DNA from: a virus
Taxonomy: Duplodnaviria; Caudoviricetes
Direction: 5' to 3' (one strand)
IMG/VR virus record: IMGVR_UViG_3300018494_000083
DNA: 64,000 bases
A program made the position numbers and the translations under genes. Shown piece by piece: positions 4,493 to 45,420 of the stretch. Below the pieces are notes generated by a model. The model worked only from the letters and a program-made list of their open reading frames with translations. It was not told the DNA's origin and made no database searches. How positions within the stretch are numbered: position 1 is the stretch's first letter; every line of letters starts with the position of its first letter.

Positions 4493-6061
4493 ATGTATTT
4501 ACGAATGCTACAAATAGATGATTTCGTGAAGCTGAATAATCTTCGTGAGATCAAGGATCCTATTTACATGCAATTTAAACAACCAACTCCAGAAGGGTTG
4601 TTCAGTCATGAGATTTTTGGTATAACCCAGTATGATAGATCTACTATTTGGGGCTATATCGACCTCGGTGCTAGATTCTTGCATCCTCTTGCGGCGAATA
4701 ACTTTAAGAAATATGGATCGACCTTTGAAAATATCATCTATGGTCTTAAACGCTATAGAATGGTCGATGGTGAGTTTATCGAAGATGAAGAAAATGGTGA
4801 CACCGGAATTGATTTTCTTTACGAAAATTACGATAATATAAAATGGAGAGATACACCGAGTATTGGATCAAGCGAAAGGATTAAATTCCTTAAGCAAGGT
4901 AAAGATAGAATCTTTATCACCAAATTCCCAGTATGCCCTCCGTTCTATCGTGATATCAATGACAACTCTTCCACAGGTATCCCTGTTGTAAATGAGTTGT
5001 ATAAAAAGGTTATCTCTCAATGTATGGCACTTAAGAAGAAAGGATCGTTCTCTTTCTTTGGAAACCTTACAAGAGCTAACATCCAAAAAACACTTGTTGA
5101 AATCTTTGACCATTATGTCACTTCCCTTAAAGGTAAGACTGGTTTAATGCGTAGATCTGTAATGGGTCGTAATATTGACTACGGTGTATGGTGCGTTCTT
5201 GCATCTCCTGTAATTGACTGTGAAAGATATGATGAAATGCTGGTTGACTTTGACCACATGGGAATCCCTCTTGCAGCAGTCCTCGCAATGTTTAAACCCT
5301 TTATCTTACAGGCAACCAAAGATTTCTTTGCAAACGAATTTGTGAGATCGGGTAAATACCCCGTCTTGAAGATGACCGGTAAAGGAAAGTACGAAACTGT
5401 ACTGGTAGACTTTATCGATCCTCTGAGTGAATTCTCTGATGATTTTATCGACAAAAGAATTGCAAACTTTGTCAATGGCTATTCTACCAGATTTGAGCCA
5501 ATTGAGATTCCTAGTAACCGTGAAGGTATTAAGGGATACTTGTCTATATCTGGTCGTTTTGGTAGTGATGAAAAGATCTCTACTCGTCCTATGACTTGGA
5601 CTGATCTGTTCTTCATCGTTGCCGAAGAATGTACACAAGACAAGAGTGCAATCTGGAGTCGTTATCCTATAGATCATTTCTATTCTGTTGAATATCCTAA
5701 GGTTAGAGTAATGTCAACCATTACTACTACAACCGCAACTATCGATAATAAAACCTACAAGTGGTATCCGAATGTCAAAGTTGGTCAAGATTCCTCTTCT
5801 GACTTTGTGGCAACGATTGCACCATGTAACGTTAATATCGGAGCTTTAGGCGCGGACTACGATGGAGATAGTACTCCGCTCAGAGGAATATTCACAGCAG
5901 AAGGAAATATCGAAGCTGAGAAGTTCAGAAGAGATAAAAAGAATTTCTTGGATCTCCAAGGAAGAAATATCAGACCTACAGAGAAAGACTTCTGTCAGTT
6001 AATGTATTCTTTGACTAAGCCTAGCATTGTTATGCCTGGTGAACTTGAAGATCCTAACTAA
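4493..6061 (+). CDS. Phage multi-subunit RNA polymerase beta'-like subunit (N-terminal plus catalytic part), probably virion RNAP
   Basis: PTPEGLFSHEIFG, WGYIDL, KGKTGLMRRSVMGRNIDY, SRYP and catalytic GADYDGD (NADFDGD homolog). Confidence 0.92.
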   Translation: MYLRMLQIDDFVKLNNLREIKDPIYMQFKQPTPEGLFSHEIFGITQYDRSTIWGYIDLGARFLHPLAANNFKKYGSTFENIIYGLKRYRMVDGEFIEDEENGDTGIDFLYENYDNIKWRDTPSIGSSERIKFLKQGKDRIFITKFPVCPPFYRDINDNSSTGIPVVNELYKKVISQCMALKKKGSFSFFGNLTRANIQKTLVEIFDHYVTSLKGKTGLMRRSVMGRNIDYGVWCVLASPVIDCERYDEMLVDFDHMGIPLAAVLAMFKPFILQATKDFFANEFVRSGKYPVLKMTGKGKYETVLVDFIDPLSEFSDDFIDKRIANFVNGYSTRFEPIEIPSNREGIKGYLSISGRFGSDEKISTRPMTWTDLFFIVAEECTQDKSAIWSRYPIDHFYSVEYPKVRVMSTITTTTATIDNKTYKWYPNVKVGQDSSSDFVATIAPCNVNIGALGADYDGDSTPLRGIFTAEGNIEAEKFRRDKKNFLDLQGRNIRPTEKDFCQLMYSLTKPSIVMPGELEDPN

Positions 6062-6300: not shown

Positions 6301-6400
6301 TGATGCTTCTCATGCTGTCACATGCTGTTTGTTTTCGGCATTTTTGGACTCCTTATTTTGTAAAAGGGCATATCCTCCGCAGGGATATGCCCGCTTTTTT
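6300..6400 (+). ncRNA. Candidate ~100-nt small RNA with anti-SD tract
   Basis: Promoter motif at 6289-6300, terminator at 6366-6400, internal CATTTTTGGACTCCTTATTTT (antisense to AAGGAG-N8-ATG). Confidence 0.4.
6366..6400 (+). terminator. Rho-independent terminator immediately upstream of cassette array 1
   Basis: GGGCATATCC-N7-GGATATGCCC-GCTTTTTT. Confidence 0.8.
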
Positions 6401-6410
6401 CGTCCTCTGC

Positions 6411-8996
6411 ACTCCAATATCATACGGATTATGGATTCAAGATAAAGGAAGTTTCGTACTTGGAACACCTGTTAGTGGAACTGCGACATATGCATATAGT
6501 TCTAATCTAGATGGTGCTACTCCAGGAATGTATAATGAGGCAGAATGGAGACAGTATTACAGATTAAATATAGACGGAATTGGAGGAGCTGGCGGTTATA
6601 CATACGGGGTTGACGGATTAGGGTATGGTTTTACTCCAGGTACACATGACGGGGTTGACGGATTATATAATGAGATGATTCGACTCGGTTATAGCGGCGA
6701 TATAAATTTTGCAGGAGCTCAAGATAGCATACGAGGTGTATAGACTCCAGCAAGAAATCATCATTCAGTACCAGTTGATTTGAAATCTATGATAAATGTA
6801 TCGATATTTGGAGATGCAAGAAGTAATTATATTGAGGCTAGCTATAATCATGGTGCTACTCCATCAATATTCATAAATTCTGATAGTCATACAAGATATA
6901 CAATTTATAACAGAGATGGACTTGGAAGAGATTATGCATATGTTATCGATAACTATGGTACTACTCCATCTGATACAAACCCAAATTATGATGGGACATT
7001 GGAAGATTTTCATTGGATAGCCAATTATGGAGGACCTTATACAGGTTGGTTACCTACTTGGATAATAGGTGTCACTCCTTTAATGCATGCCGATTCAATA
7101 CATTTAGATCAAAGATCCTTTGCCATTACATATCAAGATGGTTGTTTTCAGGTTGATCAAATCGAAAGTTATTATACCCATGGTTATTACTCCAGATAAA
7201 TTGCTTCATGTAGGCGAATTAGCAGGATGCCATTATTATTGGTTTGGTACTGGCGGATATGGAGGTTATGGCGGAACAGTTTGGGACAAAAGAGGTGTCT
7301 CAACTCCAGTCATGAATTATCACTCAATAAAAATAGATCAATACTCAATTGCCAATATATTACCTAATGGAAATGCACATGCATCTCTAATAGAAACATA
7401 TTATAATCATGGTGTCACTCCACCAGCATTTGGTTGGATGTACCAAGGGAGTCCATCTGGATACGGTCATATTGCAATCATATTTAGTTGGGGAGAATCA
7501 TCTGCTAGCAACCAAAGTACAGCTAATCCAAATGGTGCTACTCCAGGTCATGCTCTCAGGTACAATGGTATGTATCCTGCAGAAGGATCTCTTAGCCTTT
7601 CTGATGGCAGGGGAGCTGATTCTGGAACTATTTATCAGGCGTATAATGGTACTCCTTCTGTTAACGACCCAACGATGTTAATATATGGCGGATATAAATA
7701 TTCCTATTACTTTTATGATATGAGAGAATATGGAGGTATATCTGCTGATTCATCTGTTGGAGATCGAGGTGTTTATGACTCCATTTTGGAATACAAATTA
7801 TGATATAGCTTATCCAACATGGGTTTATAAAATAGAAAGTACTGGTTGGTGTATAAGTTATAGAAATACTACCCTGGATAAACTTGGTGATATACTCCGT
7901 CAGTAGCCGATAAATATAATGGATCTATATTGATACAGGAGAGTGTTCGGATTAATGGAGATTGTTCATGGAATGTATCAAGGGAAAAGTATGGACTCCT
8001 GGGTTGCTGGGAGACGTATATCATTGGTGCGATCAGTTTGAATACACCCAACCAGATGGGATTGTATATAGTAGTGGATTTGGATGTCATTCTAATCATG
8101 GTTACATTACTCCAGTTAGTGTGAATAAAATATATTCTAGCGACATTAATAACACTTGTGTAATTTTAAGAAATGGTGAAAGCGGGACATATGGCTATTT
8201 CTATTCAGGTGCCAATAATGGTGCTACTCCTAGTAATATGACAGATAGCAATGCTCAATTGTGGGATAATGGAATATCTGCAATCGGAACTTGGATTAAT
8301 ACTTTGTGGAATAAAATTGGTGTACAACTCCACATTTAATAGTACGAAATTTTATCCAGGAAATGTACTGTACGAGTTTAATCATAGCTGACGGATACGG
8401 TGTAACAGATCAGTGGTTCATGTCAAATTATAAGCTTGGTGAATACCACTCCAAGATCAGAATCACTAATATATGAAGGAACTGAATTATCAACGGATCA
8501 TTTGTATGCCATACATGATATCGGTCAATGCTCTCCCAGATTTTATATTAATATGTATGGTTCTACTCCAGATGTAAGATATTGGGTTGGTTTAAATGTA
8601 TGGCATGAAGGTATCTTTTGTCATATTCATACTGAATATAATGAATATGTAAATTACGCAAATTGTAAGTATGAGTTACTCCAAGTAGACGAGTTCCACC
8701 AGATGGAGAACAGAGAGGAACTAGAGTTCAAACCGATGGGACGTGTTCCGAACTTATATATACTATTCTTCGGTATGGACAACTCCAAGTAGATCTAAAG
8801 TAGCCATCAATGATGATCGATGGTGCAGATATTGGGAAAATGGGACAGTCACCTTTCAAGCATATCCAACAATCAGGTATGGTCTACTCCAAGTAATTCA
8901 AAAGCTGCAGATAGTCTGAGATGGTGTAGATTTATGAATAACGGAACAATTACAGTCTTAGCTTATCCATCAATATCGTATGAAATACTTACTTGA
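6411..8996 (+). repeat. Cassette array 1: 23 ACTCC-anchored peptide-coding units (101-127 bp spacing)
   Basis: ACTCC at 6411, 6519, 6633, 6744, 6858, 6963, 7074, 7189, 7303, 7417, 7540, 7651, 7778, 7894, 7995, 8109, 8226, 8327, 8448, 8565, 8678, 8782, 8886; each unit reads open from Thr-Pro; most end at Gly-x; no RBS or start codon. Confidence 0.9.
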
Positions 8997-9217: not shown

Positions 9218-9976
9218 ATGACCACAACAAATCCGAAACTCACACTTAGCACTGAAGTCCTTGGTGTGGCAGAAGGAAAACCGGAGGATCTGTCAGGTTA
9301 TATCCTTAATCCTAAGGAAGTATCTTCTGCTGTTGCGAGGGTATTTGAACTTTTGGGTGTTGACAAGGATGATATCAGATGCGTAAAGCTCGCTTCTGAT
9401 GCTGACAACAAGCCTAAGATTATCGTCGAGGTTTCCTACAAAGCTGTTAAGAAGAACGACGATAACCAGCCTACCGCTTCCTGGACCGAGTTCTATGAAG
9501 GCGGCAATCCCGAAGGTGGAAAGAATCGTCTCTCCAACTTCATTTACAAGTCCCTTATGGGCTGTGCGTATTATGGACAGGATCACAACGCTCTCAAGTG
9601 GCGTAAGGTTGTCCGTGGAGATGCTAAGTACGCTCAGATCGAGTTCGATCCTTACATCTTCATTGCATTCGCATACAACATCAACTTCGCTGATCCCTTC
9701 TTCAAGATCTCTGCTCCTGCTACTCGCTGGACTTCCAACGATAAGCTCGACGAGATGTCCGGTAAGGAGAGAAAGGCAATTCTTCGCAAGGAAGCAGAAT
9801 ACAAAGAGGAGAATCTTCGTCCCTGTGTCTTCTACGTAACTTTCGCAAAGAATTCTACTTGGAGAGCTAAAGACGGCTCTCAGGTAAACGGCTTCCATCC
9901 TGAGCAGGTTGAGTACGTTTACGGCGAGATGACTCGCGAGAGAAAGAAGGAGAAGAAAAAGAAGAAGAACCACTAA
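9218..9976 (+). CDS. Hypothetical protein, high-expression codon bias, basic C-terminal tail
   Basis: 252-aa ORF, GAGAGG SD, own terminator, ends RERKKEKKKKKNH. Confidence 0.8.
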   Translation: MTTTNPKLTLSTEVLGVAEGKPEDLSGYILNPKEVSSAVARVFELLGVDKDDIRCVKLASDADNKPKIIVEVSYKAVKKNDDNQPTASWTEFYEGGNPEGGKNRLSNFIYKSLMGCAYYGQDHNALKWRKVVRGDAKYAQIEFDPYIFIAFAYNINFADPFFKISAPATRWTSNDKLDEMSGKERKAILRKEAEYKEENLRPCVFYVTFAKNSTWRAKDGSQVNGFHPEQVEYVYGEMTRERKKEKKKKKNH

Positions 9977-23332: not shown

Positions 23333-24319
23333 ATGACTATTACGTATGAACAGGCATATAATAAGCTTGATTCCATTGTTGAGTCCGCTCTCGTTAACTT
23401 CGAATGTGAGGTTCTTACTGAGGGTGTGGATGTCGGCAAGGCATTCCGTGTAGTTAAGGCTGCAATCATCAAGCTTATCGATACTGTAATCAATTTCGTT
23501 AAGCAGCTTGCTGTTAAGTTCAAGGCAAGAGGCATCGACAGCGTTCCTTACAAGGCTGGCGAGCTCAAGGCTGCTGTTGATCGTGCAACTGCTGACTCTC
23601 TTTGCGCTAGCATCTCTAAGGTAGCTGGCGATCTCCGCAACGGCGACGTTAACACCAACGCTAACGCTGCTATCAAACTCGGTGAGAGAACCACTGCTGA
23701 CGGTACTGTTAGCAAGGCTGACATCATCGCTATCCTGAACACTGTTCACAAGACCACTGCTCAGCTTAAGGCTGAGATCAACCGCTACGCTGATAACGAT
23801 CCCGACGCTGCTAAGAAGCTCGAGATCATCAAGGGCTACGTAACTAAGCTCAACCAGGTTGCTAACGCAGTTGCTACTGTTGTTGGTAAGGCTGGTGAGT
23901 CTGCTCGTGCAGATGCAAAGGCTCAGAAGGCTGCAAACGCTGCTAAGGCTGCTGCTGGTAAGGCAGAAGTTCCTTCTACTCAGAGCGAGTCTGCAACGGT
24001 TCGTATGGCTAAGCTTCTTGTTGAGGCTGCTGCTATCCTTGAGGAGGCTGAAGGCGGCGATGCTGCTGTTGAGGCACATCCTTATGTTGACGGTATCGAG
24101 GGCGGCGAAGGTACTCAGGATCCTATCGATGATATCCCTGAGGAGAAGCCCGAAGAGGCTGCAGCTCCTGCTCCCGAAGTTTCCGGTGGCGAGGGTGCTC
24201 CCGTAGATCTTGAGGAGATCAAGGAACTTGTTGGCGACGACAAGGAAGCTATCGCTCTCATGACTGAGGACGAAGGCTCCGCTGTATGCGAGGCTGTTGA
24301 AATCGACTTTGGTTTCTGA
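23333..24319 (+). CDS. Abundant internal head / scaffold-like protein
   Basis: Ala/Glu-rich, very strong codon bias, IVESA, LTEG, LVEA, VCEA motifs; GGAGG SD. Confidence 0.7.
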   Translation: MTITYEQAYNKLDSIVESALVNFECEVLTEGVDVGKAFRVVKAAIIKLIDTVINFVKQLAVKFKARGIDSVPYKAGELKAAVDRATADSLCASISKVAGDLRNGDVNTNANAAIKLGERTTADGTVSKADIIAILNTVHKTTAQLKAEINRYADNDPDAAKKLEIIKGYVTKLNQVANAVATVVGKAGESARADAKAQKAANAAKAAAGKAEVPSTQSESATVRMAKLLVEAAAILEEAEGGDAAVEAHPYVDGIEGGEGTQDPIDDIPEEKPEEAAAPAPEVSGGEGAPVDLEEIKELVGDDKEAIALMTEDEGSAVCEAVEIDFGF

Positions 24320-24403: not shown

Positions 24404-25866
24404 ACTCCATGTATAGGAACTGATCGTCCATTGCCAATATATAATCATCTTGTCAGAAATGTAGGTGCATCATTTAGTACTGGAGCAGATTATGTTTATT
24501 CTGCGTATGACTCCAACAAATGTAAATGATAATAGAGAAATGTACGGAACAAGTTTAATGCTCTTTTCAGGTGAGGGATTTATTAAAATGCATTCAACTG
24601 TGCGAGCATCCCTTGGTGACTACTCCACATAAAGTGCTACATTATGATAGAGAGAATTATGGCAATTCATTAGTTCTATATGATGGACGATCATACGCCG
24701 ATTCATATTATTCTGTAACTTATCAGATTGGTGGATATACTCCATTAAAAGATATAGGATATAATAATTACGAAAAACTCAACGGAATAAACCCAAGTGG
24801 ACAACCAGAGATGAAATACATGTGGATTCCAAATACCGAAAATGACGTCGGTGAGTAACTCCAACCCTTTGGTCTATTTATGATTATAATTATGATATAT
24901 TATACAGAATGGCAGATTATGGAGATTTAATTCTTGGTTCTGCTAGTCAATTATTTGGTGCCCATACTCCAGATACATGCTTTGAAATATTATCAATTGA
25001 ATCAACCAAATGGAAAGTAATTCATAATACTGGTGTAACTGTTGGCGGTCACGGAATTAGAGTCACTGACATTCCGGCTGGTGCAGGTGTTTGACTCCAG
25101 CAATGAATGAATTAAAAGCAGTGATTAATTATTCTGCATTTTTCTGGTTTTGGGATAGTATGTTATATTATGGATATATGCCAAATCATAACATTCCTGT
25201 TTGCACTCCTCTATCAAATCGATCTATATCAGATCTTGAGGGAGATCAGATACGATTTGCTGCATTATACAAAGATGCTGATGTATATTGACATTCCGTA
25301 AATTCTTGGATTTATGGTACTCCATATTCTCCTGGAGAATCTGCAACTTATTATATTGATAACAGCGGAAATAGTTCACCAAGAACAGGCAATATATTAG
25401 AAACTAGAGGTGTGACTCCGCAAGGAAAGATAGATCCATCAGCAAAAGCAGTAAATATCAATATTGCATATAATGGTCTTCCATCTTTACAGAACCCATC
25501 AGTGTCAGTTTGTGAATTACTCCAGTTAGAGAAAATGAATATGGACCACTTTATCACTTTGTCCTTGAAGCTACAGGTATTTCTAGAGGTGCGGGATGGT
25601 GTAGTACTCTTACTCTGACTGGTGTTAATTATTCACTCCTGAGGGTAGATCTTTATCTCACATAATATCGAATAAGGGAGAAGATAATCCTAGGTATACA
25701 AATATAGATACCAAATGGGGTGTTTGTTATTACTCCACAAGCGAAAATTCAAAGTGGAATAAAAACGGTATATCTCTTTATATCTGATTTTGGATTTTAT
25801 AGTATAGGTAATCCGAGCACACAAAAGTATGTTTTTCAGCATTTATATACAGGAGTCAGATCATAA
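24404..25866 (+). repeat. Cassette array 2: 13 ACTCC-anchored peptide-coding units (96-128 bp spacing)
   Basis: ACTCC at 24404, 24510, 24622, 24739, 24858, 24966, 25094, 25205, 25319, 25415, 25519, 25635, 25732; 12 of 13 lack an internal stop in the Thr-Pro frame; last unit ends GVRS-stop. Confidence 0.9.
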
Positions 25867-29508: not shown

Positions 29509-30216
29509 TTACCTTCTCTTATTCGTTTTCTTTTTGGAATATGGTGTAACTAAAAGTTTGGCATCTATATAATTTTCGAGATCTTTATACGATTTTCTAT
29601 GAGTGATTGTCTTATATGTATATTCACTAATAACCCCATTAGGGAATATGATATCCAACACTACTCGGGGCTTGAGTGAATAGTATTTATTAAAGGATGA
29701 TGACACAACAATGTCATCATCCATTATCACATGTTTCTGAATCATATCACAGTATGCCTTAAGGATATTATCGAAGTCTGGCTTACCGATCGCATAATCG
29801 TGCTCAGTTTCATATAATACCATTTCCAGAGGATTAACAGTGGTAGGCATAGGTGCATATGCTGTTAGATTTATTCTCATAGGAACCGTGATTACTTTGA
29901 GTTCATCATCAATATTCTTAATGAATTTCTCGATAGCATCAAAGTTCGCTTTTGCGTTAGGAACATGTAGACCACGGAACTTAAAATTCGTCCGTGGTCT
30001 ATGTGCTTGAATCGGAATTTCATAAAACGTAAATCTCAAGCAACGGTATTCAATAGACTCTTTAGCTTCCATAACTCTATCAAGAGCCATGTTTAGCAAG
30101 TCCTCGTTAAACTTGTCACCAAGCTTATCTTGTAACCGTTCATAGACATCCAAACTTACATTACCATAGAGTTCAGCATATTCTTTTTCTCTCTCTTTTC
30201 GAGAACGTATACGCAT
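29509..30216 (-). CDS. rusA: RusA-like Holliday junction resolvase
   Basis: PIQAHRPR and KPDFDNILKAYCDMI...DDDIV...KYY..KPRV signature. Confidence 0.85.
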   Translation of the reverse strand: MRIRSRKEREKEYAELYGNVSLDVYERLQDKLGDKFNEDLLNMALDRVMEAKESIEYRCLRFTFYEIPIQAHRPRTNFKFRGLHVPNAKANFDAIEKFIKNIDDELKVITVPMRINLTAYAPMPTTVNPLEMVLYETEHDYAIGKPDFDNILKAYCDMIQKHVIMDDDIVVSSSFNKYYSLKPRVVLDIIFPNGVISEYTYKTITHRKSYKDLENYIDAKLLVTPYSKKKTNKRR

Positions 30217-44502: not shown

Positions 44503-45209
44503 ACTCCGAAGCCATTTATTCATATCTGGCAAGGAGAAGATGTATCACTGATTCATATGTCAGTCGTGTATGATAATGGAAATGGATCTGTAAGATATAT
44601 CGCAGGATTTGATGGTGTTCAACTCCAAGTTATATATACGACAAATATGCAGATAGTCGCTGGTCAAAAATATTATCAGGTGGAGATAATACATTTGAGT
44701 CTGGGTCAGCGGATAGAATTTATGGTCTACTCCAAGATTTTATTATAATGAAAATCTAGTAGATGATAGAATGATATTAGTTAATGGAACTGTGGATATG
44801 ACTATATATCCTTATAAAATGTATGAGTTACTCCAGGTCCATGGATGCTACCTTGGGGTCTTGATCAGATTTATGGGATTAATCAGTATTCAAATCTCGG
44901 TGTTTCTTTTCCGACTAATCCAAATAATAAAGATGGTACTCCTGCTGGATATAAGATGCCAAACAATACCGATAGTCTATACACTCAGAGAATTATGCAA
45001 ATGAGTGATAAAGGATCAGGGACAACACAATACATTCCAAAAAATAAGTATGGTATATTACTCCATCAAACAATAAACGATATAAGTATGAAGAAAATAG
45101 ATATTTTACATTTAATGAAACTGGTGATGTTGAAACCTGGTATGATATTCCTAATGCCGAGTATGAATTGTATACATTTTTATACTTCAACAGACAATAT
45201 ATCAAATAG
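44503..45209 (+). repeat. Cassette array 3: 6 ACTCC-anchored peptide-coding units (101-122 bp spacing)
   Basis: ACTCC at 44503, 44622, 44729, 44830, 44938, 45060 (possible degenerate ACTTC at 45184); all open in the Thr-Pro frame. Confidence 0.88.
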
Positions 45210-45271: not shown

Positions 45272-45420
45272 AAATGGGGAAAAGGAAGGAGAGAAGGGGG
45301 AAAGGGGGTTGAGAGAAAGAAAAAGGGGAAACATACCCCATGGGAACCGAGGGAGACCGAGGAGAGAAATCCCCCTCCGGAGGGAAGAATAGAAAGAAAA
45401 AAAATAAAGAGAAGAGAGTA
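45272..45420 (+). other. Non-coding polypurine / G-run tract
   Basis: GGGG 45276, GGGGG 45296, GGGGG 45304, GGGG 45325 in a nearly pure A/G stretch. Confidence 0.7.

Follow-up and report, generated by a model that had tools for sequence, protein, structure and literature searches.

Cassettes without start codons in a jumbo phage are under protein-level selection and probably form a silent library of loops for one large protein

The window, as we call the whole 64-kb stretch of viral DNA analyzed here, contains three arrays (A, B and C) with a total of 42 cassettes of ~110 nt that run from ACTCC to GGT and have no start codon. The question raised by this locus is why such DNA should differ between related cassettes as if a protein were read from it. 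The initial annotation had taken synonymous differences among cassettes of array A as a sign of protein-level selection and had set them apart from the mutagenesis of DGRs. The virus is a jumbo phage, marked by its split RNA polymerase beta subunits and by related contigs of ~260 kb; to judge from record names, the samples are probably from ruminant gut. The positions of the arrays and of the units discussed are collected in Table 1.

Table 1. Arrays, individual cassettes and the hairpin next to array A, with their positions in the 64-kb window.
Feature	Position	Strand	Description
Intrinsic-terminator-like hairpin and T-run	6366..6402	+	Directly 5' of array A; 11-pair stem
Array A	6411..8995	+	23 ACTCC-anchored cassettes, 101–127 nt; joints often frame-breaking
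Cassette 6744	6744..6857	+	Second family, ends YNHG; dN/dS 0.24 to 3 orthologues
Cassette 7074	7074..7188	+	Second family, ends YTHG; dN/dS 0.69 to 2 orthologues
Cassette 7303	7303..7416	+	Second family, ends YNHG; dN/dS 0.84 to 4 orthologues
Cassette 8678	8678..8781	+	Neighbor of unit 8782 and equal to it in length (104 nt)
Cassette 8782	8782..8885	+	Thr-Pro…Tyr-Gly, 34 codons and linker; dN/dS 0.30 to orthologue
Cassette 8886	8886..8995	+	Final cassette of array A; dN/dS 0.42 to 4 orthologues
Array B	24404..25856	+	13 cassettes; starts directly 3' of a terminator-like hairpin
Array B unit 24966	24966..25093	+	In strain L015 its orthologue (111/117 nt) fills the slot of the full-length target, in frame
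Array C	44503..45190	+	6 cassettes; located 5' of the RNA polymerase beta gene, which has the divergent orientation

Anchored at ACTCC, the units of the three arrays measure 96–128 nt. Array A has the gene of an RNA polymerase subunit (4493–6061) on one side and a 252-aa gene (9218–9976) on the other. In the ACT-CC frame a single stop was found among 1,421 codons; the two remaining sense frames had 76 and 161. The sole cassette of the window with an internal stop (TGA) is located at 25205-25318; decayed cassettes are rare but do exist. Across strains the array order is kept, with internal gains and losses and without polarised growth, and the units compared sort into 86 families. Searching INPHARED by blastn with array A gave chance matches only, pattern scans of IMG/VR and JGI did not retrieve this phage, and the Rfam and tRNA scans were empty. 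A sigma-70 scan found 10 sites versus 16.9 expected, which is uninformative; the phage has its own polymerases. Units 6519 and 6633 have in common an identical stretch of 15 nt (GGGGTTGACGGATTA, window 6606-6664), a local copy between neighboring cassettes, and directly 3' of array C there is a purine-rich stretch of low complexity (45300-45420). The RNA polymerase subunit gene next to array A codes for 522 aa, and in several of the strains L004, L005, L006, L008, L009 and L010 the gene call ends after 455 aa and extra DNA follows, which suggests that an intron or another insertion is located close to the 3' end in these strains.

We have realigned the units on which the initial annotation was built. 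Units 8782 and 8886 align by codons just as reported there, with one codon gap, 34 aligned codons, 19 identical residues and exactly the same nine synonymous pairs. Their BLOSUM local score of 86 is the top value among 861 unit pairs, and the maximum of the shuffled null was 50 (20,000 draws). The dN/dS of the pair was between 0.26 and 0.42 depending on kappa, with upper confidence limits of 0.73–1.09, and the pair by itself is too short for a firm value. The second family that had been proposed (6744, 7074 and 7303) stood in part. The scores of 6744/7303 (78) and 7074/7303 (62) are both above the null maximum, but 6744 and 7074 share only 11 of 37 residues and are connected via 7303. Within this family dN/dS was 0.50 for 6744/7303 and 1.13 for 7074/7303, both with intervals that span 1. 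The second family is weak evidence by itself; in unit 7303 little constraint is detectable even against its orthologues (Table 1). The neighboring cassette 8678 probably belongs to the 8782/8886 family too, at a greater distance; this assignment is weak, the score (36) being under the 99.9% level of the null.

Other strains help to understand the pair. The 8782 type is the final unit of array A in strain L006, and the 8886 type is the final unit in L004, L007, L008 and L009. The final units of these last four strains are mosaics in which the first two thirds are 8886-like and the last third is 8782-like. We infer that the window probably holds, in tandem, two diverged and recombining alleles of the last slot of array A.

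Protein-level purifying selection, as the initial annotation had claimed, is established because orthologous cassettes from other strains could be compared, and not by the within-genome pairs. Comparing the window with five strains, the dN/dS of orthologous cassettes was 0.40–0.47 (CIs 0.28–0.61). The same cassettes read in the shifted sense frames gave ~1.3, and of the other frames only the antisense one with common third positions was also low (0.52), as expected. The constraint tracks the ACT-CC (Thr-Pro) frame of each unit. Similar values were found for array C (0.42) and for array 1, which is close to the RT and outside the window (0.48). In pairs diverged by less than 5% dN/dS was 0.21 (0.14–0.33, each sequence used once per bin), therefore the constraint is current. 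Accordingly, the suggestion that the cassettes are old and are, or were, translated can be refined: they are read in another context and the selection is no fossil. Pooled pairwise values are non-independent, and our conclusions draw on the window-versus-strain intervals and on matched pairs that enter each bin only once; sorting pairs into divergence bins biases the trend of dN/dS, not its value below 1. Only 4 of 286 distinct units bear a stop, at least two of them by frameshift, when ~5% of random point changes would create one. The flanking genes have dN/dS of 0.04–0.05, so the cassettes are constrained, but far more loosely than their neighbors.

The context in which the cassettes are read was found outside the window. 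Contigs near-identical to it (0–1 mismatch in 11.8 kb), and their relatives, carry a target gene of 1,873–1,883 aa with BspA-type LRRs and a DUF6273 domain (Pfam DUF6273, E 1e-9). Array units fill a variable slot of this gene, which bears out the proposal that they are translated elsewhere. After the target come two genes of unknown function, then the avd-like gene, a spacer of 426 nt and the RT; these last three are located ~8.6–10.6 kb before the window. In seven strains the slot between WWLR and VCFG holds seven unrelated in-frame ACTCC…GGT loops while the rest of the target is conserved, with dN/dS near 0.1 in the codons flanking the slot, and the clone of the window has an eighth, different loop. 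The loop of L013 is identical to an array unit of its own contig (111/111 nt). That of L016 is identical over 106/106 nt to a unit (in L121) of the orthologous array C of the same contig, k141_330123, ~185 kb distant. L015 carries the orthologue of a window unit (Table 1), and L017 matches a unit of another strain across 94 nt. The donors stay in place after copying (L013, L016/L121), i.e. the transfer is non-reciprocal. These comparisons show error-free copying of an entire unit (ACTCC through the Gly codon) into the slot WWLR-TP…G-VCFG, with the donor retained. The homology between donor and target amounts to 5 nt on the left and 1–8 nt on the right, and whole units are replaced. As for direction, slot conservation favors a flow from library to target: the donors remain, and where strains carry other targets the orthologues of these donors occupy the same slot, although some copying back into the arrays may occur.

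The target protein aligns with canonical DGR targets. Its model (pLDDT 65) has as top structural match the N-terminal region of 9qa6 (Z 6.6, rmsd 3.9, 138 residues), and Foldseek gave no significant match with this model; the C-type-lectin reading of DUF6273 is taken from PMC10743442. Searching with the target C-terminus retrieved, among full-length proteins, only the variants of this phage, and no second phage lineage with the system. Immediately upstream of the target gene there is a 3,690-aa LRR_5 protein (L012:1-1180).

A partial second copy of the target slot is located on the minus strand ~4.8 kb before the window, 3' of a terminator (L002:16520-16900, L003:12283-12650). It is near-identical to the main one over 61 nt on the left and 75 nt on the right, and then decays into an inverted repeat. 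We considered the difference between L002 and L003 as clonal switching from the library and rejected it, as two occupants are shuffled between main and second copy and recombination or misassembly explains them. Likewise, a 256-aa "target" in L001-type contigs is the left flank of the second site joined to the right flank of the main gene, the full gene having 1,883 aa. This join and the occupant swaps are the product of inversion/recombination, conversion or misassembly, not fresh draws from the library. The clone of the window showed, in several samples, only these two occupants in several flank combinations, therefore switching is not visibly fast.

The RT next to the target has an intact YVDD and a dN/dS of 0.10, and its best solved profile match is the Bordetella DGR RT (8ub7, E 3.5e-36). 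Canonical DGRs, with the TR located in the spacer, account for 68 of the 80 viral RT loci nearest to it; most of their targets belong to the WWLRSP…GVxFG type, in which the loop has ~21 residues. No comparable cassette array was found near these 80 loci within the DNA retrieved for each. In the RT tree the phage enzyme sits on a long branch (2.6–3.0) without a settled placement. Where the DGR signature is [I/V/L]GxxxSQ, the phage RT reads FGAPFSQ; 101 of 113 homologues and 76 of the 80 loci have Leu or Ile at the first position, and the sole Phe is that of this phage. The Phe sits at the position of Ile181, which in bRT promotes adenine mutagenesis (10.1101/2020.04.29.068544). The accessory gene upstream of the spacer (164 aa) has no match at the sequence level and is Avd-like by fold and position; the clusters that its Atlas model resembles are an Avd-like one (TM 0.66/0.81) and an IVP four-helix bundle. 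Across strains the RT, the gene for this protein and the spacer are conserved, and the spacer retains the 3' motifs of canonical relatives.

The spacer also holds what remains of a template. Target and spacer have in common GGTGTTTGCTTCGGG, an IMH/IMH*-like pair, and then diverge. The TR is reduced to a stub, ACATCGTAT joined to GGTGTTTGCTTCGGG, in which the bases left of the junction belong to the spacer RNA only and not to the constant flank of the target. We compared the cassette ends with this stub. A contiguous in-frame match of at least 4 nt was found in 62 of 65 (mean 5.7), versus 2 of 65 per other frame. Among the families of units with a target-side match of 2 nt or less, 12 of 18 matched the RNA-only side by 4 nt or more, against none of 48 among units with a target-side match of at least 4 nt (p 4e-9). 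In our pair, the 3' end of unit 8782 (GTAT/GGT, the slash marking the junction) matches the stub by 4+3 nt, and that of unit 8886 (ATCGTAT/G) by 7+1 nt, of which the 7 are RNA-only. A third-position G directly before the junction TAT, rare inside cassettes (15/92), was found in 16 of 22 (p 7e-7), therefore the junction signal acts on nucleotides and not on protein. It had been predicted that the L016 loop derives from an RNA-side-matching unit, and the L121 unit indeed matches 1 nt of the target 3' flank and 6 nt of the stub. The longest RNA-only-side match seen, 10 nt, belongs to the first array C unit of L117 (1583-1685) and its orthologues in L118–L121, a unit that is absent from array C of the window. 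The stub is predicted to fold into a hairpin whose loop contains GUAU (pair probabilities 0.6–0.86). A solo cassette is located 3' of a terminator and upstream of the avd-like gene (L001:20190-20306); it is present in L001, L012, L016 and L018 and cleanly absent from L013, L014, L015 and L017.

We think it likely that the units serve as a silent library, each one a complete alternative binding loop for the same large protein with LRRs and DUF6273 (putatively C-type-lectin-like), and that their copying depends on the RT and the stub. The protein-level selection on the cassettes would follow from this copying, in which whole loops enter a surface-protein gene almost without error: only units that encode a workable loop would help the lineage, and start-codon-less DNA would in this way come under purifying selection. 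The copying itself would be done by a degenerate DGR. The RT–Avd complex would prime on the conserved 3' spacer of its own RNA and copy the constant end of 15 nt (IMH*) as well as some bases of the template stub. At the predicted hairpin loop the nascent cDNA would switch, by 4–8 nt of microhomology, onto a cassette, be extended to ACTCC, integrate at the target IMH and be resolved at the 5-nt ACTCC match. The template switched to could be array RNA, with the RT continuing, or array DNA, with a DNA polymerase continuing, and a short cDNA that primes DNA-templated synthesis fits equally well as an RNA template. Terminator-like hairpins directly precede arrays A and B as well as the solo unit, which counts against RNA. 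On non-DGR RNA, bRT-Avd makes cDNA of only ~5–35 nt and still mutates adenines (10.1101/344556), therefore the phage RT would need new properties. The left match between cassette and target is 5 nt versus the at least 8 bp of identity needed for known 5' integration (PMC3240598). New cassettes would arise by ordinary point mutation, duplication and inter-strain recombination. That a DGR has been rebuilt as a high-fidelity cassette copier, in which a stub RNA and a jump of the RT in trans by 4–8 nt of microhomology bring ~100 dispersed, unrelated and pre-selected loop cassettes to a binding protein, is a reading towards which we lean only slightly.

One alternative would be a canonical DGR, the family differences being due to adenine mutagenesis of a template repeat elsewhere in the genome. 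A DGR-type RT and an Avd-like gene are indeed present, and 25 of the 36 differences between 8782 and 8886 have an A in one copy. Nevertheless this reading is already contradicted and we consider it hardly credible. A single template with A at the variable sites of the pair would carry a TGA stop, and at 11 columns both copies would have had to mutate, each in a different way. In canonical TRs 33% of the codons are AAC, in the cassettes 1%. The singleton rates, polarised with orthologues, show no adenine bias (A 0.185, T 0.197, C 0.225, G 0.11), with T>C and A>G dominating. In the same-contig copies, two only and with expressed loops filtered by selection, 0 of 73 adenines were changed (95% upper bound ~4%); the adenine change of the Bordetella enzyme in vitro is 52% (10.1101/2020.04.29.068544). 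The TR/VR pairs of canonical relatives have 7–29 mismatches, nearly all A-only. No A-only template was found in the window and the related contigs searched, which are part of the genome, and in 8 strains the TR slot holds, instead of a full-length template repeat, only the near-invariant stub with its 15–17 nt match. The diversity is thus stored and not generated by A-to-N retrohoming, as had been proposed; the accompanying contrast with DGRs applies to the mutagenesis only, the cassette ends being tied to a DGR RNA stub. Translation of the units in place, as small peptides or frameshifted polyproteins, would be another source of selection, and runs of in-frame units do form ORFs of up to 227 aa that gene callers predict. 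However, the joints shift frame between strains, so these ORFs are not conserved; the units have neither a start codon nor a ribosome site, the constraint follows the ACT-CC frame of each unit, and it is in the target that units are in frame. We regard it as very improbable.

Two other readings accept the exchange between arrays and target. The main flow could go from target to array, the RT writing expressed or co-infection-acquired loops into the arrays and the reuse of the library being secondary. Selection would then be explained directly, as earned in the expressed gene. The fragments of stub and target flank in the cassette ends, and a solo unit present or absent at an otherwise empty post-terminator site, which indicates that units can be inserted at new places, agree with it. 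Cassette dS (0.28–0.38) is also above that of the flanking genes (0.11–0.14), but this is not specific because the N-terminal part of the target has a dS near 0.3 too. An archive of this kind does not fit the conserved array order, with its internal changes and lack of polarised growth, nor the same-slot orthologues of copied units where targets differ, and nearly all of the ~15–20 slots per array are constrained simultaneously; we find it unlikely. Somewhat more doubtful to us is RT-independent gene conversion of DNA, as in Borrelia vls, by phage recombination proteins and with the DGR as a bystander relic. The copies are error-free, recombination-type genes are present (a RusA match at 29509–30216 and a PD-(D/E)XK nuclease beside array 1), and vls is a precedent for selection on unexpressed cassettes (PMC3828179). 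But the homology to the target is very short on both sides, many units, one copied unit among them, match the RNA stub instead of the target, and RT, avd-like gene and spacer are all conserved.

The library-copying system that we favor works like vls silent-cassette conversion and is made of DGR parts. It departs from both in defining traits, with no TR in the DNA searched, no adenine mutagenesis and no long homology. With DGRs (Bordetella phage BPP-1, mtd-avd-TR-Sp-brt; Firmicutes-phage DUF6273 targets including tentaclins, PMC10743442) it shares the DGR-type RT, the Avd-like gene and the order avd-spacer-RT. The conserved 3' spacer motifs, the IMH/IMH*-like 15–17 nt in common, and the DUF6273 target with a variable loop between WWLR-(S/T)P and GVCFG are further likenesses. 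It differs in lacking a full TR in the DNA searched, in lacking adenine mutagenesis and in the Phe at [I/V/L]GxxxSQ. Moreover, its loops have ~30–37 residues between TP and G and are mutually unrelated, compared with ~21 residues in DGRs, and its donors are dispersed, up to ~185 kb away. In the case of Borrelia vls/vlsE (PMC3828179, PMC11499132) the likeness lies in arrays of unexpressed cassettes, one expression slot, non-reciprocal copying and selection read via dN/dS on silent DNA. Yet vls cassettes are ~90% identical to the expression site and donate segments, whereas in the phage ~5 nt are common and the whole unit is swapped. Among vls cassettes dN/dS exceeds 1 in the loops, while the phage orthologues are under purifying selection; also, the cassettes here are in a phage genome and a retroelement is implicated. 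Shufflons and invertible tail-fiber switches (Mu Gin, P1 Cin, R64) work by reciprocal inversions at longer recombinase sites. They resemble the phage system in swapping alternative receptor-binding segments, but here the donor stays put after copying. In the literature searched, whose coverage is incomplete, we found no description of this system and none of silent-cassette gene conversion for any phage.

The arrays are a natural example of DNA that is under selection even though only a copy of it, made elsewhere, is read, and this selection could be measured across phage strains. They suggest that a DGR can lose its template repeat and its adenine mutagenesis and still retarget a protein, choosing among proven loops and not by random sampling. 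Two open questions on DGRs become testable, namely the determinant of fidelity, with a natural Phe at the Ile181 position, and the minimal homology for cDNA integration. A faithful, microhomology-guided writer of ~110-nt segments would also be of interest to genome-editing specialists. If the RT was not the agent, we would still be dealing with a new variant of silent-cassette gene conversion.

Some minor features of the window and its relatives were also observed. In a 328-aa gene there is a short patch (23797-23823) with 2–12 differences versus the otherwise near-identical L115 and L116, a local repeat or conversion tract. Two or three tandem ORFs of 60 aa are located 3' of the dUTPase gene (L012:17116-18099), their copy number differing among strains. 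Finally, a 537-aa protein coded on the minus strand at 180-1793 has PHROG matches to an endonuclease in its N-terminal part and to a phosphoesterase in its C-terminal part, and could be a homing endonuclease fusion.
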